64,000 nt of DNA from an uncultured virus (IMG/VR IMGVR_UViG_2724679346_000005) (taxonomy: Duplodnaviria > Heunggongvirae > Uroviricota > Caudoviricetes). Every line of letters starts with the position of its first letter. Within the stretch, counting starts at the first letter, position 1. The DNA lies in the IMG/VR virus record IMGVR_UViG_2724679346_000005. One strand, 5' to 3'. The notes below the pieces were generated by a model. The model was not told the DNA's origin, ran no database searches, and saw only the letters and a list, made by a program, of their open reading frames with translations. The translations under genes were made by a program, and so were the position numbers. Shown piece by piece: positions 30,120 to 54,246 of this stretch.

Positions 30120-30367
30120 TTGGTCTCGCCTCTGTGGTCTCTGCGGTCGCGCCAGTAATTTAAGCGCTCTTTAAAAAACTCCCGGTAATGCACCGGCACC
30201 CGTTCAATCGCTTCCAGTACGTGGGCGCGGCTGGTTCTGCGCTCGTACAGGTTTTTGATTAAGCCGCTGGCCCTCAAATCAAGATTTAGCTTTTCCTGGT
30301 ATTCCTGAGGCCAGAGGCAAATGTTGTACGGGAGTCCGGGCGGGAGATAATCCGATTGCCCGGTCAT
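30116..30367 (-). CDS. DNA polymerase III theta (HolE/HOT)-like protein
   Basis: KLNLDLRASG..EAIERVPVHYREFFKERL resembles HolE KVNVDLAAAG..EAVEREQPEHLRSWFRERL (recalled sequence, by eye). Confidence 0.55.
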   Translation of the reverse strand: MTGQSDYLPPGLPYNICLWPQEYQEKLNLDLRASGLIKNLYERRTSRAHVLEAIERVPVHYREFFKERLNYWRDRRDHRGETK

Positions 30368-30369
30368 TG

Positions 30370-30768
30370 TTAATGTGCCAAGCGTACGTTACGCAACAAT
30401 TGATCTATTATTGATATCCGTAAGCAATACACCCTTTCCTTTTCATCAAAAGGGAGCCTCGTTGATGTACGCTTAGGTGTTAAGCGCTCCGGACCTCCTT
30501 TGCAACAACGCTTATTTCTTGATTCAGAAAGCCTTATAAATTCCTCAGTAATGTTATTGAGTGTGTATGTCGTCTTGCGCCCATTACGGCGGGTTATATC
30601 AACATGAGGTGACATAACCATGCTCCGAACGCGAATTCGCAGGGTCTCAATAGGCATTTCACAATCTGGATAATTAAGGCTGATCGCTGTAGCTATCTGC
30701 CCGTAATTCATACATTTGTTTAACATTAAGCCGGCTAATTCACGGATGGTTAGTTCACGTTTTTTCAT
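30370..30768 (-). CDS. Phage hypothetical protein, possible winged HTH
   Basis: 132 aa after helicase with GAGG SD. Confidence 0.6.
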   Translation of the reverse strand: MKKRELTIRELAGLMLNKCMNYGQIATAISLNYPDCEMPIETLRIRVRSMVMSPHVDITRRNGRKTTYTLNNITEEFIRLSESRNKRCCKGGPERLTPKRTSTRLPFDEKERVYCLRISIIDQLLRNVRLAH

Positions 30769-30813
30769 GGTCTTGCCTCTTTTTGGGTTAGTTCAAGCGC
30801 TGGTCAGGCGCGA

Positions 30814-32187
30814 TTAAAATTTAGATGTTGAATAACTCTTTTCTTTGGCCGGTGGCCTTGATGCCTCTTTTGCTATTCGGCTGGCTTCCTTTGCCACCAG
30901 TTGATCCACCGGTAGAAAGTGGCCGTTTTTAAATTCCTGATAAACGGTACCAGCCTCGCCAAATCTGTTTTTAGTTACGATAGCCTCGGCAAATCTTGCA
31001 GCAGGGCTATCGGCGTTATAAACCGCCTCTCGATACAGCATGATGATGCTATCGGCGTCCTGCTCGATTGAACCGGAGTCTCTGAGATCGGAACTGATTG
31101 GCCTGCGGCTGCCCGGTGGCCGCTCATCCACTTTTCGCGATAACTGGCTAAGGGCAAAAATCGGGGTGTTTATCCGGCCAGCCAGTGTTTTTAACCCGCG
31201 TGAAATGATGCCGATCGATAGGTCATTACGCTCCGCTTTTGGCTTAGTAATCAGACCAAGATAGTCAACCATCACCATTCTCAGTTTGGGGAACCGACGT
31301 TTGTGCGTTTCCGCTATGGCCCGTATCTGATCGATGGTCAGTTCGCTGGCATCAACGATCCAAATATCACGGCCATTTAATGCCTGTAGCGCAGAGTTAA
31401 TACGCGCCCAGTCCTCATCACATAAGGTTTTAGGGTCGCGCAATTTTGACACTGGCAAATTACCGGCCCCGGCAACGGAACGCTCCACCATCTGTAGGGA
31501 TGCCATTTCCATGCTGAATATCAGCGCCCCGCCGCCGTTCTGTGTGGCCCCCTCAACAATCTTCAACGCAAACTCGGTCTTACCCATCCCCGGACGCCCG
31601 GCGATAACCACCAAGTCCTGCGGGTTAAAGCCGCCGGTTATTGCATCCAGCTCGTCAATGCCGGTGTGCAAGTTCATTGACTCAATTTCACCATTCATGC
31701 GCTTATCCAGCATGTCCATGTAGCCGGGCAACAAGTCGTTCAGATGCACAGGGATGATGCCGCCGCTATCTGCCGTCATATCAATTAGCTGTGTTACCGC
31801 GCCCTGTATCACCTGATCACGCTGTTCCTGATTGTTCGCCCCTCGGATACCGTCAGCCGCAGTCTGAAATAGCGCGGTCATGGTTCGGCTGTACCAGGTC
31901 TTACGGGCATGAGCCGCGTATCCTTTCAGGTTCGCCACGTTACCCGGCATACGGACAATTTCAGATAGCGTCGCCAGGCTACTACCGCCCAAGGCCTCAC
32001 TGACGAACAGAACATCGATCATTCCTTTGGTCAGTGCCTGCTTTTTAATTTCTGCATAGGCAGAACGATAAATCCTGATGCTAAATGCCTCTTCCGGCAG
32101 TGTGGCAATCACCTCCAGCGCATCGGGGGTTGAGCCGCCATACAGCAGGCCGGAAAGGATCGCAGCTTCTAATTCTTGAGGTTTCAT
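30814..32187 (-). CDS. DnaB-like replicative helicase
   Basis: AGRPGMGKT, SMEM, VDYL, LSQLSR and DLRDSGSIEQDAD. Confidence 0.92.
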   Translation of the reverse strand: MKPQELEAAILSGLLYGGSTPDALEVIATLPEEAFSIRIYRSAYAEIKKQALTKGMIDVLFVSEALGGSSLATLSEIVRMPGNVANLKGYAAHARKTWYSRTMTALFQTAADGIRGANNQEQRDQVIQGAVTQLIDMTADSGGIIPVHLNDLLPGYMDMLDKRMNGEIESMNLHTGIDELDAITGGFNPQDLVVIAGRPGMGKTEFALKIVEGATQNGGGALIFSMEMASLQMVERSVAGAGNLPVSKLRDPKTLCDEDWARINSALQALNGRDIWIVDASELTIDQIRAIAETHKRRFPKLRMVMVDYLGLITKPKAERNDLSIGIISRGLKTLAGRINTPIFALSQLSRKVDERPPGSRRPISSDLRDSGSIEQDADSIIMLYREAVYNADSPAARFAEAIVTKNRFGEAGTVYQEFKNGHFLPVDQLVAKEASRIAKEASRPPAKEKSYSTSKF

Positions 32188-33158
32188 AGCGCACCGTCGC
32201 GTGTTTTTCTCAACACGTCCGGTTTCATCAGATAATCAAAATTGGCGCGCCAGTGGGAACCATCATCACCACCGAAATAAAACACCGGAGCCTGTTCGCG
32301 AAACGCCTCGAAATAGCCCTGAAACGCTTCAAGGTCTTTGGTTTTGAGGTATTGGAGTAATTCGCGGATAGCGTGCTTACGGTCTTGATCGATTTCAGCC
32401 AGTGGCAAAACATCGCTGAACACACGGTTGTATGCAGCAATGACTGCATCGCAATCAATCCGCCCTGCAGACTCAGACCATGCGCGGGCATCGGCCAGAT
32501 AACCATCGAACCGATTCACGCGGCAGATATTCGCAGGCTTGGCATACTTGCCGTTACGGGGTTTCCATGTGCTGACCACCCAATGGGTCACCAACTGCAA
32601 ATCAACCAGCGCATAGGCTTTGCGCGATTTGGTTGTTGTCAGCAAGATTTCAAATGGCCCTGGGTCTTCACATCGGGTGTGAGTGAGTTGGTTGTAATAC
32701 GCCAACGCCCTTTCAGCGTCAGCGAGAATATTTTCAGTTCCCCCTTGAGGGGTAAGGGGTGTATTGGGATCTATGACTGATTCAAAAGAGTGACTGGTTC
32801 TGGGTGCAGCATTTGCACCACTAACCGGTGCACCATTTACACCAGAGGGTGCAGGAGATTCACCATAGGGTGCAGCATTTGCACCAGCGGAATTTAAGCG
32901 CAGGTGATAAACATTTGAGCGATTTAAGCCATTTTCAGATTTACGCTCTTCAATCCTAACCAGCCCATTCTTTACCAGTTTTTGGATATGATTCTGTACC
33001 GAGCGTTCGGATATTTCACACTGTTCAGCAATGTAGGGAACCGATGGCCAGCACTCGCCCTGATCGTTGGCATTGTCGGCTAATTTTATCAGTACCAATT
33101 TACGTAACGGGTTGCCGACTTTGATACTCATGGCCTTAGCCATTAGATTCATACTCAT
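32184..33158 (-). CDS. Replication initiator (O-like)
   Basis: N-terminal HTH (LADNANDQGECWPS), internal iterons, C-terminal W.A.FDYL. Confidence 0.85.
   Translation of the reverse strand: MSMNLMAKAMSIKVGNPLRKLVLIKLADNANDQGECWPSVPYIAEQCEISERSVQNHIQKLVKNGLVRIEERKSENGLNRSNVYHLRLNSAGANAAPYGESPAPSGVNGAPVSGANAAPRTSHSFESVIDPNTPLTPQGGTENILADAERALAYYNQLTHTRCEDPGPFEILLTTTKSRKAYALVDLQLVTHWVVSTWKPRNGKYAKPANICRVNRFDGYLADARAWSESAGRIDCDAVIAAYNRVFSDVLPLAEIDQDRKHAIRELLQYLKTKDLEAFQGYFEAFREQAPVFYFGGDDGSHWRANFDYLMKPDVLRKTRDGAL
32803..32885. repeat. Origin iterons inside the initiator gene
   Basis: Four 17-bp units GGTGCA-N7-CACC at 32803, 32827, 32848 and 32869; first and last identical. Confidence 0.75.
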
Positions 33159-33160
33159 AG

Positions 33161-33385
33161 TCAGATCCCCAGCGCTTCGGCTATTTGCCGACAGGCAGAC
33201 TGATAATCGTCAGCTGATAGGTTCATCAGGCGCAGGTCTGCTTTCTTCTGCTCGTACTGTTCCCACACGCTATATGCGGCCACCTGACGCCCTGCAAAAA
33301 TTAGCGCTACGTCAGCCATGCTTGCTGGTTGGCCGTTTAGCCTGAACCCATTGCACCAGGTAATTTTGTCGATAGATGTAAGCAT
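33161..33385 (-). CDS. Phage hypothetical protein
   Basis: 74 aa with GAGG SD between YdaT-like gene and initiator. Confidence 0.65.
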   Translation of the reverse strand: MLTSIDKITWCNGFRLNGQPASMADVALIFAGRQVAAYSVWEQYEQKKADLRLMNLSADDYQSACRQIAEALGI

Positions 33386-33401
33386 TGGTCTTGCCTCTGT
33401 T

Positions 33402-33866
33402 TTAGACGGTGGTCAGCCGGTGGTGTTGTGGTCTGATTGCGTGAAGTGCCGCAACAGCGCCTGATATTCTTTGTGACATGTCACAGCCATCTAATAGAAC
33501 CGCGCTAATTGCTGCGGCAAACTCTCTGCTGGCAATCGAAACCAAATAATTCACGGTCTCGCCATTCACTCTGGCCCGCCGTTCTGCCGGGAGTGCAGCT
33601 TTAAGTACCGGTGATAATTCCAAGACCTTTCGCATTGATGCTTTTGAATCCCCGCGCAGCCAGCGAAATAACTGCTGCCGGTTGTTGTTGATAGATTTCC
33701 AATCAGCGCCGCCCTGCCCGTTTTCAATGGGAGTGAGACGAACTGAACCTGTGTTGATATTGAGCAAGAAAAACATTCTGCTGATCTCGATAGCTACATG
33801 CTCCTGCCCCCGCTCTGACGCCCACGCCTGAACTTCGGCTTTAAGGGCTTTGATTTGTTGTTCCAC
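33402..33866 (-). CDS. YdaT/CII-like regulator
   Basis: NNRQQLFRWL motif; directly after cro; AGGAG SD before GTG. Confidence 0.7.
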   Translation of the reverse strand: MEQQIKALKAEVQAWASERGQEHVAIEISRMFFLLNINTGSVRLTPIENGQGGADWKSINNNRQQLFRWLRGDSKASMRKVLELSPVLKAALPAERRARVNGETVNYLVSIASREFAAAISAVLLDGCDMSQRISGAVAALHAIRPQHHRLTTV

Positions 33867-33903
33867 GTTGCGTCTCCTGTCGCCGAAAATTGATTATTGA
33901 TAA

Positions 33904-34158
33904 TCAGATTTGTGTGTGGGGTTTGGTTAGACTAATTTCAGGTTCTGGATGCGGAAATAAATCAGGTAAATCAGGGCGAACTTGATGTGCCTGTACCTCG
34001 CCATTGGTAGCTTCAACAAGGGACTTAACATTTCTCGGGGCTACTTTTGCTTTACCGCATAACCATTTTTGAACGGCCGCCTGAGTAACACCGCATGCCT
34101 CCGCTAGTCTCTTTTGAGTGCCAACAATTTGAATTGCCGTTTTAATTACATTATCCAT
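33904..34158 (-). CDS. cro: Cro/YdaS-like repressor
   Basis: HTH QKRLAEACGVTQAAVQKW and RPDLP; ATG 34158; divergent from cI. Confidence 0.85.
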   Translation of the reverse strand: MDNVIKTAIQIVGTQKRLAEACGVTQAAVQKWLCGKAKVAPRNVKSLVEATNGEVQAHQVRPDLPDLFPHPEPEISLTKPHTQI

Positions 34159-34162
34159 CTCA

Positions 34163-34258
34163 ATCACCTTTGTTGTATTTAAATGCGAATATACAACCAA
34201 AGTTGTTTTTAGGCAACAACAATAGTGATTTGACTGGGTATAACTAAGGTTGTATTTT
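34163..34258. promoter_or_regulatory. OR region: PR (minus, TTGCCT-17-TATATT), PRM (plus, TTGACT-17-TATTTT) and operators
   Basis: ACAAC-N4-GTTGT-type sites at ~34163, 34192, 34215 and 34239; the 34192 site is identical to the OL site at 36365. Confidence 0.75.
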
Positions 34259-34264
34259 GCGATG

Positions 34265-34984
34265 ATGGGAATGACACTTGCACAAAGATTAAAAGTAGCC
34301 ATGAAGGAATCTGGGCTAACTCAGGCTGCACTAGCTGAGAAGGCTGGAGTTTCACAAGCTGCTATACAAAAAATCACGTCCGGTAAAAGCCAGAGCACCA
34401 CTAAGCTACTGGAAATTTCCCGTGCGCTCCACGTCCGTCCGGAATGGCTTGGGGAGGGAGTTTTGCCTATGAAGGAATCAACTAAAACAATAAGTCACGA
34501 ATCAAGTATTCCCACAGAAAATGAATGGGGAAGTATTATCCCTTGGGATAGTAATTGCCCCATCCACGAAGACGAGGTGGAGGTGCCATTCTTACGTGAT
34601 ATTGAACTTGCTGCTGGTGATGGTAGCTTTTGTGATCAAGACTACAATGGTTTTAAACTTCGCTTTTCGAAATCTACCTTGCGGCGAGTTGGTGCTCAGC
34701 AAGAGAATGTCATTTGCTTTCCAGCCCATGGAAATAGCATGGAGCCAATTTTACCAAACGGTACGACAGTAGCTGTTGATTGTGCGAATAAAAAAATTGT
34801 CGATGGCAAAATATATGCAATCAATCAAGACGGATTAAAACGTCTTAAACTTTTATATCGCATGCCAGGAAATAAACTAAGTATTCGCAGCTTTAATAAA
34901 GCCGAGCATCCAGATGAAGATGCTGATGGAGAAACTGTAGAAATTATTGGCCGCGTGTTTTGGTGGTCAGTTCTAGATTATTGA
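34265..34984 (+). CDS. cI: CI repressor (HTH + S24 autopeptidase)
   Basis: HTH, AAG-x-G cleavage region, GNSMEP, IIGRV; start 34265 inferred from PRM spacing. Confidence 0.92.
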   Translation: MGMTLAQRLKVAMKESGLTQAALAEKAGVSQAAIQKITSGKSQSTTKLLEISRALHVRPEWLGEGVLPMKESTKTISHESSIPTENEWGSIIPWDSNCPIHEDEVEVPFLRDIELAAGDGSFCDQDYNGFKLRFSKSTLRRVGAQQENVICFPAHGNSMEPILPNGTTVAVDCANKKIVDGKIYAINQDGLKRLKLLYRMPGNKLSIRSFNKAEHPDEDADGETVEIIGRVFWWSVLDY

Positions 34985-35051
34985 TAGCTCTCACTTCTAA
35001 GTAGTCCAATGAGGGTAGGAGTATCATTCAACCTAAGAATTAAAGGAAAAT

Positions 35052-36209
35052 ATGAAGATATTCGCTGAAAAATTAAGAGCGCACTCTGATCACGTAAAAA
35101 AAGTAAGCCATCATTGTTCTACCGAAGAAACAACTAAACAGGCATTAATATTGCCAATGTTAGATATTCTTGGCTTTAACTCTTATGACCCAACAAAAGT
35201 TAAAGCAGAATATGGCGCTGATTTCCCTGGTGTTAAAGTAGGTGAGCGAGTCGACTATGCTCTATTTTGCCATGGTGTTCCTGTCATGTTTATTGAGGCC
35301 AAGGGCTATAATCAAAAACTTGATAACCATTGCCCTCAGCTTTCTAGGTATTTTAACGCGACACCTGAGGTTACTATTGCAGCCATAACCAATGGCACCC
35401 AATGGCGTTTCTTTACTGACCTTAAGCAAAGAAATATTATGGATGCCGCTCCATTCCTACAGATTGATGTAGATGAAGCATCGGACTCTGATGCTCATCA
35501 GCTATATCAATTCCGTCACGACCAGTTCCAACCGGAAGCACTTCGAACCTTAGCTGAAGAAAGCATTTATTTATCAGCATTTACTGATGTTATTAGTGAT
35601 AGCTTAAGGAATGTCGATTCTGACTTTGTCCGCTATGTTGCAAGTCGCTCTAGCGTACAACGGCAGTTGAACCAAAAGTTCCTCGATACAATTACACCAT
35701 TGGTAAAAATGGCAGTAGAGCGAGCTGTTAGTGCAATGGTTGTTTCTGGGCTATCTATGGCCTCTAACAAAGACAAAGATATTGAAGCCGCACTCGCACC
35801 TGAGCTGAAAAAAACAGATGAAACCGCACCAGTGGTCGACCCTGAAAATTCAAATATCGTTACTACACATAACGAAAGACAATTTTTTAGCAATATTCAA
35901 ATTTTACTTGGTGAACAAGCGGATATTTCAGCAAAAGACACCGCCAGTTATTACAATATTCTTTACCAAGGAAAATCAAACCGTTGGATTGTACGTTATT
36001 TTGATAGCAAACAGCGGCCGTCGATAATTTTACCAATTGAATTAGATGAAAAAGCTATCGTAGAAGTTGAGCGGGCAGGACTTGAACTAGCTCCCGGCAA
36101 TCAAATTATAATAGATCGCCCTGAGAACATTTTACGATTACCAGGGCTAATCTTGGATTCATATAATTATTGCATGGAGGATGATAATTTCAGAAACAAG
36201 AAAAAATAG
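35052..36209 (+). CDS. HsdR_N-like PD-(D/E)xK nuclease-domain protein
   Basis: EETTKQALILP, VDYAL..FIEAK, QL..YF and ITNG..WRF. Confidence 0.8.
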   Translation: MKIFAEKLRAHSDHVKKVSHHCSTEETTKQALILPMLDILGFNSYDPTKVKAEYGADFPGVKVGERVDYALFCHGVPVMFIEAKGYNQKLDNHCPQLSRYFNATPEVTIAAITNGTQWRFFTDLKQRNIMDAAPFLQIDVDEASDSDAHQLYQFRHDQFQPEALRTLAEESIYLSAFTDVISDSLRNVDSDFVRYVASRSSVQRQLNQKFLDTITPLVKMAVERAVSAMVVSGLSMASNKDKDIEAALAPELKKTDETAPVVDPENSNIVTTHNERQFFSNIQILLGEQADISAKDTASYYNILYQGKSNRWIVRYFDSKQRPSIILPIELDEKAIVEVERAGLELAPGNQIIIDRPENILRLPGLILDSYNYCMEDDNFRNKKK

Positions 36210-36364
36210 TAATCGATTTCCTGCCCCTTCTCGCTGGAGGGGCATTCCTACATCATAAACCCCCATCTAAACTCAGCCTCCATTACTTGATTAACCTCTA
36301 AAAATTCAAAAAATAACCAAATTCAAGCTAAGAAAATACAAAAAAAAACCAACACAATACAAAA

Positions 36365-36407
36365 TACAACCAAAGTTGTTGACACAAATACAACTAAAGT
36401 GTTTAAT
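36365..36407 (+). promoter_or_regulatory. PL promoter with OL operators
   Basis: TTGACA(36379)-17-TTTAAT(36402); operators TACAACCAAAGTTGT (36365) and TACAACTAAAGTGTT (36389). Confidence 0.8.
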
Positions 36408-36552
36408 TGTTTTCATCAACACGGCACAGCAGCCGATGCGAACAGGCAGGATGCCCACGAAGTAGCTGCCGGTGGCATACGAAACACCGGATGATTCGCA
36501 AGTTTAGGTTTAGTACGTTCTGGCAGCCGGGAAGACGGCACGGGGATATGTT

Positions 36553-36705
36553 ATGAAGGCAACCAAAAAGCAAGCGGGTAAATTCCAGATCCAATATCGC
36601 TACTTTGGACATTGGGCTAACGGAAATACTTACCCAACGCGCAAAGAAGCTGATGATTACGCACGTAATACTGGGCGGGATTATCAAGTAGTCAAAGTAC
36701 TGTAA
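36553..36705 (+). CDS. Small hypothetical protein, first PL gene (50 aa, not in track)
   Basis: MKATKKQAGKFQIQYRYFGHWANGNTYPTRKEADDYARNTGRDYQVVKVL; GGGGA SD. Confidence 0.55.
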   Translation: MKATKKQAGKFQIQYRYFGHWANGNTYPTRKEADDYARNTGRDYQVVKVL

Positions 36706-37017
36706 TAACAGAATTTGGGCTGTTGCACGGGAGGAGAACCCCGCGCCAAGGCTCGGCATGATTACCACTGCGCAGCAGCCCAAACCCATAACGTAGCCAC
36801 AGCGAGAAAATGTGGCGAGGCAAGACCAAAAACTGACCCGCTGGCCCGGCGTAATGGGCACCAAATTACAGATGTAAAAAAACCCACCGAAGTGGGCTTC
36901 TTTACCCCGGGTCACCGACCAAAGTTAACCGGGAAGCTAACGGGGACCAACCCGTTAACAGAGGCAAGACCAACGGCTTACGCCATCGACCTTAAAATCA
37001 GTATATCAGGAGTTGCT

Positions 37018-37353
37018 ATGACAGCACTACAGTTAACTGCCACGCTCTACATACACACCAATCCATATTCAAGAACGAAAGATGACCGCTTTATTGTCCA
37101 TGCGTGTGACATGTCACATTACTCAGAAAAGTACGTGTTACTCGAAACTCGCGAAATTACGATTACGTTTAACGAGCCCGACCCTTTTGAAATTATCAGT
37201 AAAAAGGTTGATTCACTCCGTAGTCAGAAAGAACAAATCGCGGCGGAGTCGCATCGGAGACTATCCCTTATTGATGATCAGATTCAGGCGTTGCTCTGCA
37301 TCGAGCACACCACTCCAGCGAACGTATCTGACTGTACCGAAATTCCTTTTTAA
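37018..37353 (+). CDS. Phage hypothetical protein
   Basis: AGGAG SD before ATG 37018; coiled coil ending IQALLCIEH..EIPF. Confidence 0.7.
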   Translation: MTALQLTATLYIHTNPYSRTKDDRFIVHACDMSHYSEKYVLLETREITITFNEPDPFEIISKKVDSLRSQKEQIAAESHRRLSLIDDQIQALLCIEHTTPANVSDCTEIPF

Positions 37354-37407
37354 TTAGCCATATATCAAGACCAAAAACCGTTTGAAAACCAAAGAGGCAA
37401 GACCAAC

Positions 37408-39618
37408 ATGACTGTATTTATTTGTTTATTCGAGCCGAAAAAAGCGGCTCTCAAAAATGGGGCTATACCACTGGTTATCGCGCTGGAGGCCATAAATAAG
37501 AAAATGGCATCTGCACTGGCCATTGGTAAATTGTGGGAAGCCTACCCCGCAGCCGGTGATAACTTTACTGATCCGAAAATCTGTGAGGATGCTGTCGGCC
37601 AACCGCGTGGCCGCATCGGCCAATTCGATGAGCAGTTCGCACAGGATAATACTTTTGATGGCAAAGTATGGACGCCTAATGCGGCCCCGCTGCCTAACGA
37701 GGGGGTAAGAGAGGACAATGCTACGACTCCGGTAGACTTCAACAAATTGGGTATTGGAGCCAAAGTTGGGAGCGTAATATTGTACGGTGCGCGTGACATT
37801 GATTCACATGAGCTATCACTTGTGTATGACTTAATTAATGACGACGACGCTGAACCAGAAATAAGTTCGATATACATGGCACTCACCTGTATTCCTGCAA
37901 TTGGTGCGATGTATCCGCAGTCAATTAAAAAACTTATTGATGCCATAAATAAGAAATTTCCCAAAATACCTGGGTTCAGGGATGTGCGTAACTTTGCTGA
38001 AAAATGGGTTAATGAACCCAGCAATCGTGACGAGTTAACCGGGACAAAAAAAGTTACTCATATAAATACACCTGATCTTAATTCGTCAATTAAACGTAGC
38101 TTTGAGCACACATATAAAACGCTTGATCTCGAAGTTGCTCTCGCATTGGTGCCTGCTGATTTTAACTGCTGGGAAATACACTCAGCAGAAATGAAGCAAG
38201 CAAAAGAGCTTATGGATGGTAACGACGAAGCATGGCGCAAATGGTCCACAGAATTTCGCGTTCGCAATAATGCGTTATCTATTCCACGCGAAACTATCTT
38301 TGAAGTTGTCCGTGCGGGCAAAGAGAAACCTATCTTCCTGACGGACGCCGCAGCTAGAAAAGAATTTATCTCACAGTGTCTCGCTGTCAAGGGGCCGCAA
38401 CCTGCAGTTAAAAATTTGGGTGACGGTAAGTTCTCAATTGACGGTCTAGTCGGTGGTGAACCACAACCAGCGGCAAACAGTGAAACCAAACTGGCTCTGG
38501 TTGCCAATTCTGAGCTAGAAACTGAAACAAAACCGCCAATCATTGCAACAGAACAGGAAAATCCTGCACAGGAACCTATCACTGATAATGTCGCTCAGCA
38601 GGCTAAAGAGACATTGGATCAGTTGGGCTACAGCGTTTACGCCTCAACTGATGAGAAACCAGCACAATCAGAAATAGCCGCCGAAATAACGCAGCCAACC
38701 GAAGCGGCAACAGTTGAGGTCAATACAGATACGTTCCAACAACGAGCATCCCAAATTGATAATGACATTTCGAAACTATCAAAAGCCTCTCAAGATAATT
38801 TATGTATTTGGAAATTAGTACAACGCACTGACCCGGCGAGAACAAAGCGCAAAGATACAGAAAAGAACGGCAAAATCATTCGCTCTGTGACCAGCATCAA
38901 CCCAACTTATCAAGCGATGAGAGCAACCGAAATTTTTGGGCCTTTCGGCAGTGGTTGGGGAGTGGATATTATCAGCGAAGATTTTGTACCCGGCATCCCA
39001 TTTATGGAAGCAATCCTCGACAGTAATAACCGCGAAATTGGACGTAAACCAATGCGTGACGGTGACGGAATGATCCTCCGTACATCGAACCACACCATGC
39101 GAATTGAATTGTGGTACCGCCTCGGGGAAATGCGGGGAAGGTTCACAGCATTCGGCCATACAAAACATATTTATCAAAGCACATATGGGTTTACTTGTGA
39201 TGATGAGATCAGCAAGAAAAGCCTGACCGATGCCACTACCAAGGCATTAGCACAGCTTGGTTTCAGTGCTGATGTATTCATGGGTATGTTTGATGATGCT
39301 GAATATAACGCTGATAACAGCCTCGAGTTCAGCATTATAAACGCTAGCAATAAAGCAGAGGATTCAGTCCGTTTACGCGAAGAGCTGGATGATAAATTTA
39401 AAGCCAATACCGAAACAATGCGCTCCGCTGTGACAGTAAATGAAGTCAATAAAATTTGCTCAACGTTAACTCGCGTGATGGATGCTCACATTAAAAATGC
39501 CAAGGCTATTGGTGATAAAGAATATGAGAAATATTTGACTGGCCGCTTGCGCCGGCTGAATGAAATTAAAGCTGAATGCCTGATCAAATTTGAAAATACT
39601 GCGGAGAAAACATCATGA
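37408..39618 (+). CDS. RecE-N-like region fused to a Rad52/Sak-like annealase domain
   Basis: RecE/ExoVIII-like N-terminus; C-terminal TSINPTY..ATEIFGPFGSGWG and KKSLTDATTKALAQLGFSADVFMG. Confidence 0.7.
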   Translation: MTVFICLFEPKKAALKNGAIPLVIALEAINKKMASALAIGKLWEAYPAAGDNFTDPKICEDAVGQPRGRIGQFDEQFAQDNTFDGKVWTPNAAPLPNEGVREDNATTPVDFNKLGIGAKVGSVILYGARDIDSHELSLVYDLINDDDAEPEISSIYMALTCIPAIGAMYPQSIKKLIDAINKKFPKIPGFRDVRNFAEKWVNEPSNRDELTGTKKVTHINTPDLNSSIKRSFEHTYKTLDLEVALALVPADFNCWEIHSAEMKQAKELMDGNDEAWRKWSTEFRVRNNALSIPRETIFEVVRAGKEKPIFLTDAAARKEFISQCLAVKGPQPAVKNLGDGKFSIDGLVGGEPQPAANSETKLALVANSELETETKPPIIATEQENPAQEPITDNVAQQAKETLDQLGYSVYASTDEKPAQSEIAAEITQPTEAATVEVNTDTFQQRASQIDNDISKLSKASQDNLCIWKLVQRTDPARTKRKDTEKNGKIIRSVTSINPTYQAMRATEIFGPFGSGWGVDIISEDFVPGIPFMEAILDSNNREIGRKPMRDGDGMILRTSNHTMRIELWYRLGEMRGRFTAFGHTKHIYQSTYGFTCDDEISKKSLTDATTKALAQLGFSADVFMGMFDDAEYNADNSLEFSIINASNKAEDSVRLREELDDKFKANTETMRSAVTVNEVNKICSTLTRVMDAHIKNAKAIGDKEYEKYLTGRLRRLNEIKAECLIKFENTAEKTS

Positions 39619-40181
39619 GTGTACGCACTATAGATTTAGCTTTCGACCGTAAAAAGTTTCTTGAATTTGTGGAAACATCTGACGACTTAACCCCCGAAAT
39701 GATCGCAGATACATTGGAAGCGATCGAGGGTTCGTTGGGGGATAAACTGGATTCGGCTATGGCCGCTGTTCGTCATATCGAGGGGCAGGCTGAAATTTGC
39801 GACAAAGAATCAAAGCGCCTAGCCGGGCGCAAAAAAAGCTATCAAACAAGCGCCGGGCAATTACGCGACTATATGCTTCAGTGCCTTGTCATGGCTGAAA
39901 TGAAGGGGTTAAAAACGACGCAAAACACGTTTACGGCTGTTAAAGGGCGGGAGAAGTTAGTGGTCGAAAATGTGGAATCATTACCTGATGAGTATGTCGA
40001 TGTCGCCAGCCAAATTATCTATACCCCTAAAGCTGATGAAATCAAGAGCGCCATTAAAAAGGCAATGGAAGAGGCTGAAGCCAAAGCACTTGAGGAAGGT
40101 AAAGAGATAAGCGAGGTGTTTAAAAACCCAATACCAGGTGCGCGCATTGAAATTGGACCAAGATCTTTGCAGGTTCGTTAA
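39615..40181 (+). CDS. Gp157-family protein
   Basis: IADTLEAIEG, LPDEYV, IPGARIE..SLQVR. Confidence 0.8.
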   Translation: MSVRTIDLAFDRKKFLEFVETSDDLTPEMIADTLEAIEGSLGDKLDSAMAAVRHIEGQAEICDKESKRLAGRKKSYQTSAGQLRDYMLQCLVMAEMKGLKTTQNTFTAVKGREKLVVENVESLPDEYVDVASQIIYTPKADEIKSAIKKAMEEAEAKALEEGKEISEVFKNPIPGARIEIGPRSLQVR

Positions 40182-40225
40182 TTTATTCAGCCCCGGACCA
40201 ACGGGGCATTATTGAGGCAAGACCA

Positions 40226-40396
40226 ATGCTAAGAAAGACACAAAAGCGGCACGAGCTGGCGTATATAACACTTCCAGACGGGCGAACAGGAACTATCCAC
40301 ACTGATCGCCGCTGTGATGTTAACTACGATTTTCCGGTAGATGTGCTCATTAGTAGCACACCACCGCAACCAACCGCTGAAAAGGAGATCAGGTAA
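40226..40396 (+). CDS. Small CsrA/RsmA-like protein (56 aa, not in track)
   Basis: MLRKTQKRHELAYITLPDGRTGTIHTDRRCDVNYDFPVDVLISSTPPQPTAEKEIR; ungapped identity to E. coli CsrA at M1 L2 T5 E10 I14 T21 P37 V40; GAGG SD. Confidence 0.55.
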   Translation: MLRKTQKRHELAYITLPDGRTGTIHTDRRCDVNYDFPVDVLISSTPPQPTAEKEIR

Positions 40397-40551
40397 TGAT
40401 CCGTTCTCAACTCGCCGTATTCTTTATCACAGCAGGAACAGCCTTAATTTTTATCTATGGGGCCGAGGTCAGTGCTGTAGCTGCGTTTTCATTTGGTACC
40501 GGTTTGGCTATGGGGTGTTGGAGGCGTAGGAAAGTACCAATCCAAAGTTGA
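40396..40551 (+). CDS. Small membrane protein (51 aa, not in track)
   Basis: TAATG coupling, AAGGAG SD, two hydrophobic stretches then RRRK. Confidence 0.5.
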   Translation: MIRSQLAVFFITAGTALIFIYGAEVSAVAAFSFGTGLAMGCWRRRKVPIQS

Positions 40552-40621
40552 TTTTGCTTAATCGGAAATAATCAGCCGACCCCGCTAGCATGGTGGTAAA
40601 CCAACACCAGGGGAAACCATC

Positions 40622-40828
40622 ATGCAGCCATGGCAGCCGGGCAAACGGCTATTGACCGAGTTCGACATTAAGATTGGCAAGTTATCAGCCAGCGTACGCA
40701 AACAGCAACTCACCGACCAAGATATACAGCGGGCATGTTCTGAGACCGACAGAGCAATTTACCGAATGATACAGGGGCAAGACCATGAGAAACGACCACG
40801 ACATAATCACGAAAGAGGAGATGATTGA
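40622..40828 (+). CDS. Phage hypothetical protein
   Basis: 68 aa with AGGGG SD, upstream of xis. Confidence 0.6.
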   Translation: MQPWQPGKRLLTEFDIKIGKLSASVRKQQLTDQDIQRACSETDRAIYRMIQGQDHEKRPRHNHERGDD

Positions 40829-41021
40829 GCTGACCGGTCATCACTATAAAACTAAGCAATGTGAATCTTTGCGCCGGGCAGGAATATTTTTTATTGAACG
40901 CCCGGATGGTCACCCGAAAACAACCTGGGGCCATTTTTTAAATCCCGTCAGTTTACGTGGCAAGCATGCAGAACAAGAGAAAGAAGAGCCCGATTTTGAG
41001 GCTATGAATAGTGGCAGGTAA
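40785..41021 (+). CDS. Excisionase-like protein (DUF4224-like)
   Basis: ELTG..KQCESL..GIFFIERPDGHP..EEPDFEAM; overlaps int start. Confidence 0.75.
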   Translation: MRNDHDIITKEEMIELTGHHYKTKQCESLRRAGIFFIERPDGHPKTTWGHFLNPVSLRGKHAEQEKEEPDFEAMNSGR

Positions 41022-42027
41022 ACGTAAGAACGCCGCAGACAACTGGATGCCATCTCGTGTATTCCGAGGCCCTAGCGCTTATAACTTCAAACATCCGGAC
41101 GGGCGTACGATAAGACTGTGCGCACTTGACTCTACCCAGGCGGATGTCTGGGTTAATTATGAGAAATATATTGATCAGAAAAAAGACCAGCCAACGCTAA
41201 ATTCACTTGTTGAGTCTTTTTTCAGGTCGGTTGATTTTATTGATTTGGCAACAGAGACTCAGAAGGACTATCGGAAATACGCCATGAAATTACTACCGGT
41301 TTTCGGGGTCATGCACCCCGACAATATAAAGCCAGAGCATGTCAGAAAATACATGGATAAAAGAGGGTTGAGTAGCAGGACACAAGCAAACAGGGAAAAA
41401 ACGTTTATGTCTCGCACTTACCGATGGGGATATGAACGGGGATTTGTGAAAGGTAATCCATGCAAGGGAGTTAAGCAATTTAAAGAGGAAGCGAGAGAGC
41501 GTTATATTACTGATGAAGAATATAACGCAGTGTATCAAGTCGCACCTGATGTTGTACGGGCCACGATGGAAATAGCTTATCTGTGTCTCGCCAGGCAAGC
41601 AGATGTGCTTTCATTGCGTAAAGATCAGTTCAGAGAATCGGGGATATACATCAGGCAGGGTAAAACAGGGGCAAAACAAATCAAGGCATGGTCCGAACGA
41701 TTACGTGATGCCATCGCCATGGCTGAATCACTACCGATCAAACAAGGTGTAAGTAGCGTCTACATCATCAGACAACAAAACGGCCAGCGATATACACGCG
41801 ATGGATTTAACAGTCGATGGCGCAAAGCCAGAGAGGCGGCAAAAGAGGCAAATCCAAAGTTAGATTTTAATTTCACCTTCCATGACCTTAAAGCCAAGGG
41901 TATTTCTGATCTTGAAGGGACACTCAGTGAAAAACAGGCAATTTCAGGGCATAAAAACATGGGGCAAACAGCGAGGTATGACAGAAAAATAAAAATCGTG
42001 CCAGTAGTAGGTAATCAGAAAAAGTGA
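41011..42027 (+). CDS. int: Tyrosine integrase
   Basis: ARQAD (R), QGKTG (K), FHDLKAK, SGHK and TARYDR. Confidence 0.92.
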   Translation: MAGKRKNAADNWMPSRVFRGPSAYNFKHPDGRTIRLCALDSTQADVWVNYEKYIDQKKDQPTLNSLVESFFRSVDFIDLATETQKDYRKYAMKLLPVFGVMHPDNIKPEHVRKYMDKRGLSSRTQANREKTFMSRTYRWGYERGFVKGNPCKGVKQFKEEARERYITDEEYNAVYQVAPDVVRATMEIAYLCLARQADVLSLRKDQFRESGIYIRQGKTGAKQIKAWSERLRDAIAMAESLPIKQGVSSVYIIRQQNGQRYTRDGFNSRWRKAREAAKEANPKLDFNFTFHDLKAKGISDLEGTLSEKQAISGHKNMGQTARYDRKIKIVPVVGNQKK

Positions 42028-42051
42028 ATTTTTATGCATTAGTTGAATTTT

Positions 42052-42075
42052 ATGTTCCTAACGCATGTTCCTAAC
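42052..42075 (+). repeat. Direct repeat, likely Int arm-type sites
   Basis: ATGTTCCTAAC at 42052 and 42065, just after int and next to the gap. Confidence 0.5.
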
Positions 42076-42229
42076 NNNNNNNNNNNNNNNNNNNNNNNNN
42101 NNNNNNNNNNNNNNNNNNNNNNNNNNNNNNNNNNNNNNNNNNNNNNNNNGGCTATATTGTTCCCGACTGGCCGCCAGTCGTATAGCCCTGCTCAACAACC
42201 CCGCCAGCCGGGGTTGTTGGTTTCTCTGT

Positions 42230-42247
42230 TGTGCCACCCCTCACACA
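42230..42247 (+). promoter_or_regulatory. Ogr-dependent late promoter element upstream of FI
   Basis: TGT-N12-ACA (TGTGCCACCCCTCACACA) after a strong hairpin at 42193-42219. Confidence 0.6.
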
Positions 42248-42318
42248 ATCCTCATCACCTGCCCCGCGCACAGTAATCCGGCATCATAGCGAATGAACGC
42301 TTAACCGGAGAAAACCGC

Positions 42319-44556: not shown

Positions 44557-47483
44557 TAAGAACCTCCGTTTGCGGGTTTCCTTAAGTGCCATAGATAAAA
44601 TCACCCGGCCATTTAAATCTATGTTGGCCAGCAATAAAACGCTGGCTGCATCCATCAAAACGACGAAAGACCAGCTTAAGCAACTCAATGGCCAGGCGGC
44701 CAAAATTGAGGGTTTTCGTCAGAATAAAGCCGCTGTTGATCGTGCCGCACAGGCGTTGACTGCCGCCCGCGATAAAGCGCGTCAACTCGCCACTGAATTA
44801 AAAAACAGCGCAGCGCCTACAGCTAAGCAGGCGAGAGAGTTTAAGCGTGCCAGTGAAGAGGCCGCAAAACTCAAGCAAAAGTACAATGACTTACGTACCG
44901 CACTCCACACCCAGCGTGCCGCCTTACAAAGCAGCGGCGTTGCCACTAATCGACTGGGACAAGCACAGCGAACCCTTAAAGCCAGCATCACCAGCACCAC
45001 CGCCGCGCTGGCCGCACAACAACGCCGGTTAGCGCAACAAGCCCAACAACAGCAACGCCTGAATGCCGCCCGCAATCGCTTTGATGCCAGCAATCAGCGC
45101 AAAGCGGTAGCCGCCGGATTAGGGTATACCTCGTTTGCTACCGGCCGCGCCATGGGTCGGGGGATAACCAAAACGTTGGGTGTGGGTTATGAATTTGACG
45201 CGATGATGAGCAAAACCCAGGCCGTTACCCGCATTCCGGATAAAAACGCGGAGGATATGCAGGCGATGCGTCACCAGGCCCGTACCCTGCCACTCTCATC
45301 CAAGTTTACCGATCTGGAAGTGGCTGAAGGCCAATACTTTCTTGGCCGCACTGGCTATAGCCCGAAACAGGTTATGGGGGCAATGCCCGGTATGCTTAAC
45401 CTCGCCGCTGCCGGAGGGATTGATCTTGCTACTGCTGCCGATATTGCTTCCAATATTCAAACCGCCATGGGTATTCCAGCGGAGAAAATGGATCACGTTG
45501 CCGATGTGCTAACAGCCCTCTTCACCCGGAATAACGTCGATATCCCGATGCTGGGTGAATCGCTTAAGTACTCTGCCGGTGTGGGTCGCGAATACGGCCA
45601 GAGTCTGGAAACCGTGGCGGCGGCCACAGCTATGCTGGGTAGCGCTGGTATTCAAGGCAGTCAGGCCGGTACCACTATGCGCAGTATCTTGAGCCGTATT
45701 GGTGGCTCTAAAACCGTGAAAGATTTGGGCGTCAAAACTGCCGATAAAGACGGCAATATGCGTGATCTGGTTGATATTCTTAAAGATATCAACGAGAAAA
45801 CCGCAAAAATGGGTAATGTTGAGCGCGGTGCAATCTATAAAAGCATTGCCGGACAATATGCCGTTACCGGATTTGGCGTGTTAATGAATGCTGCCGAGGA
45901 TGGATCGTTGGAGCAGATGCGAGGCCAGCCCGGCCAGTATGATGGTGAATCAAACCTCGTAGCTTCAACCATGCTCGACAACCTAAAAGGCGATATGACC
46001 ATTCTCCATGCCGCCATGGAGAATATCAGTGTTGAGTTATTTGAGAAGAATAACGACTGGCTACGTTCGGCGGCAAAAGGCATCAGTGAATTTATGCACG
46101 GCGTGGCTGAATTCCTTAAGGCTCATCCCGGCGTGAGTACTGCGATTGTAAAAGTGGGTACCGTTGTCGCCATTGCAACCGCCGCATTCGGGGCGCTGGC
46201 GATTGCTGCCGTGGGTATTTTAGGCCCCTTCGCCCTGCTCCGTTTTACTACCTCAGTGCTGGGGATCCGCTTATTGCCGCGCTTGTCGTTGAGTCTGTTT
46301 CGACTGGCAAGTATCACGCCCATTACAGGTGCGCAAATTGGCAACTTTAGCCGCTCACTGCTCGTGATGTCTCAACAGGGCGGCCGCTCAGCCATCGCCA
46401 GTTTAAAAGGGTTGGGTCAAGGTCTGGTGAACGTGGCCCGCTCGCCAGTGAAATCGGCCGTCAGTGGCTTTACGTTACTCGGTAATGGTATTAGCTGGCT
46501 GGCTAAATCCCCGCTTAGGTTCCTGCGTTTCGCGCTCGGTGGCCTGGGTAGCATGTTGGGTATCCTGATCAGCCCGATTGGGTTAATTGCCGCGGCAATC
46601 GTGGGTGCTGGCTTATTGATTTACAAGTACTGGCAACCGATTAAAGCGTTCCTTGGGGGGGTGGTAGAGGGCTTTATGCAGGCCGCCGCACCGATTAAAG
46701 AGGCGCTTAAACCGCTGGGGCCGGTGTTTGACTGGATTGGTGATGCAGTCAAAAACGTGTGGAACTGGTTTAAAAAGTTACTGGAACCGGTGCAATCAAC
46801 CACGGCCGATTTAAACCGCGCCGCTAATGCCGGTAAGGCCTTTGGTCAGTTTTTGGCTGACGGCATTGGACTGGCCATGATACCGATAAATGCGTTGATC
46901 TCATCCATTAAATGGGTACTTGAAAAACTGGATGAAGTAAAGCAACGCTCTGACAAAACCCAGGCACTGGCGCAGGCAAACCCAGCCACTGCCGCGGGCC
47001 CGGGTAACTACGGCGTGGCGTGGAAACCAGCGCAAACGAAAAGCACCTATATCGAAAGTAAATATACCGGGGCATATGATAACGGCGGTACCATCCCGCT
47101 CGGAAAATTTGGCGTGGTAGGTGAATATGGCCCGGAAATCATCAACGGCCCGGCACAGGTCACCAGCCGCCNNNNNNNNNNNNNNNNNNNNNACCCCCGC
47201 CGCTATGGCGGTTGCGGCTTCCATGCTATTCAGTGGCTACCCGGCCAGCGCCGCGCCGCTCCATCCTTACAGTTTACCGGCGGCACAGTACCGCAGTAGC
47301 AACGGTCAGACAAATAATCATCAGCAAAATCAAACCAGCCATGCTGCGCCAGTTATCAATATTTACCCGACGCCACAGCAGGATGCGCAGGATATTGCCC
47401 GCGAGGTGGCCCGCCAGCTGGCCGCCCACAACCGCAGGGAACAGAGCAAATCAAACCGCAGTTATCAAGACCATGACGACTAA
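44549..47483 (+). CDS. T: Tape measure protein T, spans gap 47172-47192
   Basis: Long helical ORF; C-terminal part continues after the gap to the stop at 47483. Confidence 0.85.
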
Positions 47484-49396: not shown

Positions 49397-49833
49397 CGCC
49401 TAGAACTCACTAAAACTATCTTGCTCAAAAAATCTNNNNNNNNNNNNNNNNNNNNNNNNNNNNNNNNNNNNNNNNNNNNNNNNNNNNNNNNNNNNNNNNN
49501 NNNNNNNNNNNNNNNNNNNNNNNNNNNNNNNNNNNNNNNNNNNNNNNNNNNNNNNNNNNNNNNNNNNNNNNNNNNNNNNNNNNNNNNNNNNNNNNNNNNN
49601 NNNNNNNNNNNNNNNNNNNNNNNNNNNNNNNNNNNNNNNNNNNNNNNNNNNNNNNNNNNNNNNNNNNNNNNNNNNNNNNNNNNNNNNNNNNNNNNNNNNN
49701 NNNNNNNNNNNNNNNNNNNNNNNNNNNNNNNNNNNNNNNNNNNNNNNNNNNNNNNNNNNNNNNNNNNNNNNNNNNNNNNNNNNNNNNNNNNNNACATACT
49801 CGTACTACTTTGTTTTACTTAGAATATTTTCCA

Positions 49834-49919
49834 TGGTGCCCGGGGCGGGACTTGAACCCGCACAGCCATAAGCCGAGGGATTTTAAATCCCTTGTGTCTA
49901 CCGATTTCACCACCCGGGC
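49834..49919 (-). tRNA. leuZ: tRNA-Leu(TAA)
   Basis: GCCCGGG acceptor stem, TAA anticodon, long variable arm, GTTCAAG, CCA. Confidence 0.95.
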
Positions 49920-49929
49920 TCTGGAAAAC

Positions 49930-50003
49930 TGGAGGCGCGTCCCGGAGTCGAACCGAGGTAGACGGATTTGCAATCCGTAGCATGGCCACTCTGCCAACGC
50001 GCC
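49930..50003 (-). tRNA. cysT: tRNA-Cys(GCA)
   Basis: GGCGCGT acceptor stem, GCA anticodon, UCCA end. Confidence 0.95.
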
Positions 50004-50055
50004 TTATTCTTCTTTGCCTTTACAGCTAAGGTTCGCTAATGCCAACCTATTAATT

Positions 50056-50131
<76 letters not shown>

Positions 50132-54243: not shown

Positions 54244-54246
54244 NNT

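Follow-up and report, generated by a model that had tools for sequence, protein, structure and literature searches.

Why should the leader of a phage early operon carry perfect copies of an early-gene start tag that are not followed by a start codon? The stretch of DNA analysed here (the window) comprises bases 1 to 64,000 of a provirus record that is 75,128 bases long. A cluster of GACCA motifs (36790-36975) sits in the leader of the left early operon of a lambdoid prophage. A first-pass annotation had read this cluster on the plus strand, as a CsrB-like decoy RNA titrating a CsrA-like protein or as a termination switch controlled by that protein. Its general idea of a regulatory non-coding element tied to the start tags of early genes is retained by our analysis, but the strand was wrong and the partner probably so. 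The explanation that we hold to be probable, on the strength of sequence comparisons, is that an antisense RNA of the IsrB family represses many early genes and is titrated by the PL transcript on induction.

The prophage and its motif cluster

The plus strand carries cI (34250-34984), a 111-aa gene, an exonuclease gene, a Gp157/Gam-like gene, small ORFs, the excisionase and the integrase, and cro, cII, O and dnaB are on the minus strand. A candidate PL promoter (36379-36407, plus strand; TTGACA, 17 bases, TTTAAT) was recognized by eye downstream of cI and an endonuclease gene, and is absent from the list of the sigma-70 scanner; it is the candidate source of a sense transcript across the element. 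The closest named relatives of the prophage proteins are from Yersinia, and because one scan of bacterial genomes for the element returned a single chance match, the host genera rest on protein names and three named phages. Runs of N occur in the window at 42076-42149, 47172-47192, 49436-49793 and 54244-54245, and after the integrase (42319 onward) there is a separate tail-gene block followed by tRNA-Leu, -Cys and -Gly genes (49834-50131), and the record could thus be a composite of more than one element. As the first-pass annotation had stated, the left operon has no recognizable N-like gene: PHROGs gave no N-like family for 24 early proteins, and Pfam gave none for 15.

The leader has other features on its plus strand. 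Just after the candidate PL, an optional element of 62-64 bases (36438-36501) matches parts of 53 phage records, ST64B, SfV and ZF40 among them, at 80-95% identity, and is cleanly missing in some relatives. It has a modest fold (z -1.6) and no Rfam match, and is a candidate leader RNA or antitermination site in phages without an N-like gene; its identification as an HK022 put site is not supported, since HK022 is not among the best 40 of the 53 matches and the HK022 PL leader is unlike it by eye. A small hairpin with a GAAGA-type loop (36514-36540), 3' of a CGTTCT stretch, has compensatory stem changes in relatives and is often repeated before the terminator; it resembles a lambdoid boxA/boxB site, with no N-like gene found here. 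An optional module then contains an ORF of 50 aa (36553-36705), with no PHROGs or Pfam family match, and a long hairpin (36714-36784, z -3.64) that includes GGAGGAG.

The motif density of the cluster is far above expectation. GACCAA occurs four times in 186 bases (0.05 expected), GCAAGACCA seven times in the window (0.63 expected; 0 of 100 shuffles reach seven), and perfect 12-mer tags six times in the 75,128-base record, against none for the reversed control. Two perfect copies of GAGGCAAGACCA stand without ATG, the first (36817-36828) followed by AAAAC and the second (36961-36972) by ACGG, and GACCAA occurs at 36917 and 36945, both as described in the first-pass annotation; these two GACCAA copies are in or inside predicted loops on both strands. 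That the copies have no start codon is true of this window and is a lineage-specific trait, as relatives have ATG at the equivalents of both 36961 (L014 and L015, for example) and 36817, and other groups start mini-ORFs or extensions at the former. In the window, an ACG at 36973 comes directly after the second copy, in frame with the ATG (37018) of the 111-aa gene (ORF 36715-37353). Among 75 distinct elements the codon after the second copy is ATG in 47, ACG in 28 and a purine variant in none, most search patterns having forced T or C, and a scan with a purine after the second copy gave 73 loci, none of them a true element. The idea that ACG proves wobble pairing was given little weight, because of these patterns and because the ACG of the phages with AAA spacers (see below) resembles a three-base deletion.

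The upstream copy (36817-36828, plus strand) is outside the antisense RNA described below, 144 bases before the second copy, in an optional module that is missing from several close relatives. Its predicted binding to that RNA is -19.2 kcal/mol, and it is a candidate decoy or a decayed leader-ORF start. Directly 5' of it, in the same optional module, the GCCACA/TGTGGC hairpin pointed out in the first-pass annotation (36796-36816, plus strand) is indeed present; alone it is unremarkable, since on neither strand does the region 36790-36870 fold better than its shuffles (z 0.17).

A predicted antisense RNA of the IsrB family

The minus strand is the structured one. The stretch 36870-36996 has a fold z of -5.98 on the minus strand versus -1.75 on the plus strand, and within it we predict an antisense small RNA of about 120 nt with four hairpins (36874-36993, minus strand; MFE -56.6, z -5.38, 0 of 200 shuffles), its 5' end being placed by the -10 spacing. 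A candidate extended -10 (TG-A-TATACT, 37000-37008, minus strand), read from the sequence beside the Shine-Dalgarno of the 111-aa gene, stands 7 bases before the first hairpin. The sigma-70 scanner, which requires a -35, does not list it; relatives have a hexamer of the form TAnnnT in this position, with letters that differ among them (TATACT, TAAAAT, TATAAT, TAGAAT, TAGACT). Hairpin 1 (36966-36993, minus strand; -13.1 kcal/mol alone) is the G-U-rich 5' part, whose 8 pairs are 98.1% paired in 27 relatives, and it holds the UUGGUCUU part of an anti-tag arm (36960-36972, minus strand), the plus-strand side of which is the second tag copy. The anti-Shine-Dalgarno end of the arm (36960-36965) is a 6-base linker, predicted from unpaired probabilities to be single-stranded, and could serve as a toehold. 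Hairpin 2 (36936-36959, minus strand) and hairpin 3 (36906-36933, minus strand) display UUGGUC loops (36945-36950 and 36917-36922), both opened by UUGG, a YUNR motif; the stem of hairpin 2 varies in its letters among relatives with the loop kept, and hairpin 3, the part common to Salmonella IsrB, has four pairs changed on both sides. An intrinsic terminator with a UUCG loop, U7 and an extended stem (36874-36905, minus strand) ends the RNA. The terminator-like A7-CCCAC-CGAA-GTGGG-CTTCTTT of the first-pass annotation was found at 36876-36903, but it reads better on the minus strand, with its UUCG loop and U7; a simple scanner lists the hairpin on the plus strand only, and it may also be a weaker plus-strand terminator in this lineage.

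Relatives were collected from viral-contig scans, and locus counts refer to loci among the matches listed. Among 104 distinct elements listed, a U-tract of at least four U after the stem is found on the antisense strand in 104 and on the sense strand in 76, a -10-like hexamer (a loose pattern) in 103 and 35, and the better fold in 103 and one, respectively. For a consensus, 27 relatives were picked out of 51 distinct cores and aligned; the fold is at -40.1 kcal/mol in the antisense and -10.9 kcal/mol in the sense reading, and the antisense reading has 197 G-U cells and a single A-C cell. Pairing holds in 98.8% of the cells of this alignment, and both sides have changed in 8 of its 31 pairs, which 0 of 500 shuffles reach, in a covariation count that omits the poorly aligned hairpin 2 and is of a kind inflated by relatedness. 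The same RNA layout, 114-120 nt long, is found in four group representatives, in all of which half of the arm is buried in hairpin 1. The groups are named after the three-base spacer of their tag, GAGG-nnn-GACCA; CAA and AAA RNAs have two loops and TAT RNAs one. The first-pass annotation had stated that its reading would fall if the region were a decayed or translated ORF, with ATG in relatives and no conserved structure; relatives do have the ATG, in partial agreement with this, although the structure is conserved.

Some further observations concern the RNA and its loops. A motif listing found no such element before recE in Rac and Tritos. The L029 group (e.g. L029:5032-5177) has an IsrB relative with no tag, in which the second loop repeats the variant letters of the first. 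A search of RNA runs matched at most a fifth of the words, in unstranded contigs from mixed samples or samples of relatives. Mimicry of tRNA-Pro was considered for hairpin 3, which has 12 bases in common with the 3' end/trailer of E. coli proK and fewer with proL; AAA loops keep only GACCAA, and the resemblance was put down to coincidence.

The proposal that the plus-strand cluster itself is a CsrB-like decoy RNA titrating the CsrA-like protein draws on the four GACCAA copies, two of them in predicted plus-strand loops, and on a CsrA-like ORF with the motif in its own leader. Structure, terminator, -10 and IsrB match are nevertheless all on the minus strand, and the weak plus-strand fold and consensus given above speak against a decoy. 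Neither a promoter nor a terminator brackets the cluster on the plus strand, the conserved -10 and U-tract face the other strand, and the terminator-like hairpin splits the cluster. The CsrB/RsmZ clan has no plus-strand match, only rsmX on the minus strand with 23.6 of 56 bits. Given also that relatives have the ATG and that the element is kept where the protein gene is absent, we regard this decoy as highly improbable. The sponge idea may survive in another form, in which the PL transcript, as perfect complement of the antisense RNA, would titrate that RNA.

The plus-strand hairpin could also act as a PL terminator controlled by a tag-led leader ORF at the 36817-equivalent, with the antisense RNA blocking translation of this ORF and so causing early termination. 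In immunity of the P1/P4 type, a translation block leads to early termination. The AAA-group phages do have ATG-led mini-ORFs 141-153 bases upstream of the second tag copy, some of which read into the terminator; a sense U-tract of at least four is present in 43/43 CAA and 30/43 AAA elements, and the scanner match is on the plus strand. The same U-tract occurs in only 3/17 TAT elements, however, 36817 has no ATG here, and several close relatives do not have the module. As the main control, such attenuation seems to us very unlikely; it is compatible with repression by the antisense RNA as an added layer.

Start tags and the CsrA-like ORF

The arm of the antisense RNA mirrors GAGGCAAGACCA at six early-gene start codons. 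Near-perfect tags number eight in the record, all within 30121-40785; six are at an ATG, and the two others are the copies of the motif cluster. Those on the plus strand precede the 736-aa exonuclease gene (37394-37405; ATG 37408, with a second GACCAA at 37369), the CsrA-like ORF (40214-40225, with a GACCAA-loop hairpin at about 40191-40206) and the excisionase (40774-40785, a variant with the second base A changed to G). Those on the minus strand precede a 74-aa gene between cII and O (33386-33397; predicted binding -34.0 kcal/mol), a 132-aa gene after dnaB (30768-30779, with a GACCA-loop hairpin about 25 bases upstream) and a 108-aa gene preceding a methyltransferase (30121-30132, a variant with spacer CGA). 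Both variants in the window are A-to-G changes, which still pair with U. At the 74-aa gene the complementarity to the RNA continues into the first codons; among the loci listed this does not extend beyond Yersinia-like ones, and long complementarity as a general feature of this gene was rejected. The tagged genes head closely spaced blocks, namely exonuclease-gp157, xis-int, 74-aa gene-O-dnaB and 108-aa gene-methylase. Predicted net binding after unfolding is -15.5 to -34.0 kcal/mol at the 7 tag sites outside the RNA gene, compared with -0.5 to -11.4 kcal/mol at 17 other early starts and a minimum of -11.4 kcal/mol at 95 background starts, energies that are partly circular, the tag being the complement of the arm by definition, and that show only that opening hairpin 1 is affordable in the model.

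The same layout is present in viral contigs with the spacers CAA, AAA, TAT and ACT, and in the named phages ZF40 (a Pectobacterium phage, spacer CAA) and BUCT709 (spacer AAA). Of 148 distinct sites at distant starts (116 loci listed, 72 distinct), 117 have the spacer of the RNA's own copy; the sites stand for few lineages and not for 148 independent tests, many loci being in the set twice. In the TAT group, 16 of the 49 sites counted have a mismatching AAT spacer. Over the 12-mer, identity ranges from 0.84 to 1.0, and at most positions 4 or more bases upstream it is down to about 0.2-0.3, the background. Predicted binding across groups is specific for the TAT RNA, and there are CAA sites that the AAA RNA binds no less well than its own. 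A second GACCA is found at most 50 bases upstream at 55/77 CAA and 57/108 AAA targets, versus 28/273 and 45/487 controls, and at 0/37 TAT targets versus 9/148 controls. It lies in a hairpin loop in 30/77 CAA, 50/108 AAA and 0/37 TAT targets, and in the window five of the six tagged starts have a second upstream copy. At the level of sequence, we regard as established the conserved structure of the RNA, its terminator and -10-like hexamer, its complementarity to the tags, and spacers that follow the RNA's copy.

Two phages with a different recombination module (L340 and L411) have a tag with the spacer ACT at several starts. The tag copy of L411 is surrounded by a terminator and two GACCAA loops, and one of the ORFs led by the tag in L340 is arginine-rich, 81 aa long and N-like by eye. 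Directly 3' of the element in the window, the 111-aa gene (37018-37353, plus strand; phrog_2479, function unknown) has no named family in the Atlas. Its product and the CAA- and AAA-group relatives have an acidic C-terminal tail ending in IPF, VPF or IPY, which TAT-group relatives do not have. Bacterial SSB has a similar acidic C-terminal tail, and by analogy the 111-aa protein may recruit or titrate host SSB partners.

The tags could have spread for reasons of their own. In this alternative the RNA acts in cis only, on the overlapping PL transcript, by classical antisense action or by convergent transcription, and the tag is a strong start site copied by recombination or gene conversion. For an IsrB of the Gifsy type there are no tags that it could act on. 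The tag lies at module borders, with optional modules beginning or ending nearby, an exonuclease and a Gp157/Gam-like protein are among the products of the phage, and copying would likewise make spacers uniform. Action in cis only leaves unexplained, however, the invariant UUGGUC loops on changing stems, the upstream GACCA loops at targets and the loss of identity where the arm ends; we infer, too, that 12 bases are short for frequent gene conversion. We find this alternative unlikely.

The other partner to consider is the CsrA-like ORF of 56 aa (40226-40396, plus strand; phrog_2482, five predicted strands). It is probably a distant CsrA relative, in line with the first-pass annotation, a candidate target of the antisense RNA and possibly its antagonist. 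The ORF itself matches no Pfam family at E up to 1 (PF02599 not matched); 6 of 30 aligned relatives in its profile match Pfam CsrA, and the Atlas lead to CsrA scores 0.80. Its monomer model has five strands (pLDDT 81.5); in fold searches with it, Foldseek gave no match at E 0.001, and another search placed an RsmA/CsrA-family chain no higher than rank 29 (Z 2.7, rmsd 3.4, 41 aligned). PDB sequence searches returned repeat-domain matches only.

Among the loci listed, duplicates included, the CsrA-like gene is present in 55/55 CAA and 45/53 AAA loci, several of the 8 AAA loci without it ending close to the element, and in 2/60 loci without repeated tags. It was found in none of 12 TAT/AAT/ACT loci, 10 of them TAT/AAT. 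Nor did 4 whole TAT/AAT records have a match, in a search in which the AAA positive control matched at 1.9e-23. A Pfam CsrA search matched 0 of 5 records, with a model that misses the window's own ORF too. In all three TAT/AAT operons inspected, the gap between gp157 and xis is only about 75 bases and therefore leaves no room for the gene. As the TAT/AAT groups keep RNA and tags without the CsrA-like gene, a CsrB-like decoy for that protein is weakened.

The distribution of the gene also bears on a reading in which the CsrA-like protein binds GACCA loops and start sites and competes with the antisense RNA for the tags, either as an anti-antisense switch or as the main repressor. CsrA bridges two sites, and the CsrA-like protein would do likewise. 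In favour of such binding, loop-displayed upstream GACCA occurs only in the CAA and AAA groups, those that have the gene, the gene's own leader in the window has both loop and tag, and the profile links the ORF to CsrA. Tags and RNA without the gene in the TAT/AAT groups count against it. The RNA-binding surface of CsrA is formed by the first and fifth strands, and in the CsrA-like proteins these are highly variable, in contrast to the constant GACCA. The gene has no tag at its own start in some Yersinia-like alleles and in nearly all copies of the AAA group, and a protein leaves unexplained the 3-base spacer that follows the RNA's copy. On balance we judge this reading rather unlikely. In many Yersinia-like relatives (L017:13100-13135, L019, L086) the CsrA-like gene has lost GACCA from both the upstream loop and the start, the other tags being intact. 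Close relatives do have the gene, with a changed start site.

A proposed mechanism and its place among known systems

For the preferred explanation, repression by the antisense RNA, the following course is proposed. The lysogen would make the RNA from its own promoter. A target would first be contacted by the unpaired linker that is the anti-Shine-Dalgarno and by the loops with their UUGG (YUNR) motif, and the G-U-rich hairpin 1 would then be displaced by Watson-Crick pairs. Pairing would cover the Shine-Dalgarno and the start codon of tagged genes and so repress their translation. With tagged genes coming first in blocks of closely spaced genes, the RNA would dampen leaky early expression over a broad set of genes for recombination, excision and replication. 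When the prophage is induced, strong transcription from PL across the locus would block the facing antisense promoter, and the RNA would be titrated by its perfect complement in the PL transcript together with the ATG-less copy at 36817, giving a threshold.

A bolder view, to which we give a small chance, is that a single antisense RNA recognizes a private address of 12 bases, set where each of the two early operons is entered, and forms a second layer of immunity, independent of the repressor, in many lambdoid prophages. The spacers would be specificity groups against related phages, and the CsrA-like protein an anti-antisense factor freeing the tags on induction. The analysis as a whole offers a concrete and testable function for the IsrB family and suggests that widespread prophages may silence recombination, excision and replication genes in translation via a single RNA. 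With such silencing a post-transcriptional threshold would be added to the lysis-lysogeny switch, and superinfection exclusion between phages with different repressors may find an explanation. It also puts natural orthogonal RNA-tag pairs on offer and corrects the reading of such clusters as sense-strand sponges.

The nearest known RNA is IsrB itself. Rfam RF01386 matches 36877-36963 on the minus strand over the whole model with 35.0 bits, equal to the gathering threshold of 35 (E 0.0022), and scores below threshold in relatives (29.4 in L217, 27.6 in L102), so that the RNA is a borderline member of the family, with added parts. Salmonella IsrB is described as an expressed RNA of 88/94 nt, antisense to its neighbours beside sbcA (PMC2330248), and as expressed in a Gifsy-2 lysogen (PMC7067206); the Hfq binding in Rfam's description goes back to a table with 2 vs 4 reads for isrB-1 and none for isrB-2 (PMC2515195). 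IsrB-1 and IsrB-2 (Salmonella Gifsy-2 and Gifsy-1; PMC2330248) are also antisense to the left operon, upstream of a RecE-type exonuclease gene; here one 111-aa gene lies between RNA and exonuclease gene. The svsR RNA, as described in PMC12803456, differs from the element, and identity with it was rejected. Within the literature searched, which covers few subscription journals, we found neither a target or function for IsrB nor a description of the tag. IsrB and the RNA here have the same CUUUGGUCGG loop hairpin followed by the same terminator, and a -10-like hexamer at the matching place. They differ in that the RNA here is about 120 nt long instead of 88/94 nt, with a second UUGGUC loop and the anti-tag arm, and in that the tag stands at six start codons here and at none in the 20 kb of Gifsy-2 that were read. 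In Gifsy-type relatives there is a single loop, that of hairpin 3, with the terminator, but no arm, tags or CsrA-like gene, and for this reason the oldest role of the loop was probably in cis and other than tag pairing.

CI of phage P4 is a small phage RNA acting as a repressor layer for lysogeny, and both CI and C4 are processed out of the strand that also carries their targets, each acting on a single operon. The RNA described here is predicted from the opposite strand, with matching sites in both early operons, and no C4/CI family of Rfam matches 33000-42300. Full repression of ant in P1/P7 is described as needing C4 of immI (PMC8198154), and the likeness to P1 C4 and P4 CI is that here, too, a small phage RNA is the probable second repressor layer for lysogeny.

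YUNR loops are given as typical of kissing antisense systems in PMC4485353, and ColE1 RNA I, R1 CopA and pMV158 RNAII resemble the RNA in having YUNR-type loops and a single-stranded stretch beside a hairpin. The plasmid RNAs have one fully complementary target in cis; here a tag of 12-13 bases is repeated at distant genes. With CsrA/CsrB (Rsm), finally, the locus shares a short motif placed at Shine-Dalgarno sites and in upstream loops and repeated in a non-coding region, and a small CsrA-like protein encoded nearby. It departs from that system in that the motif is GACCA and not GGA, that the structured RNA displays the complement of the motif, and that the arrangement persists in phages without the protein gene.
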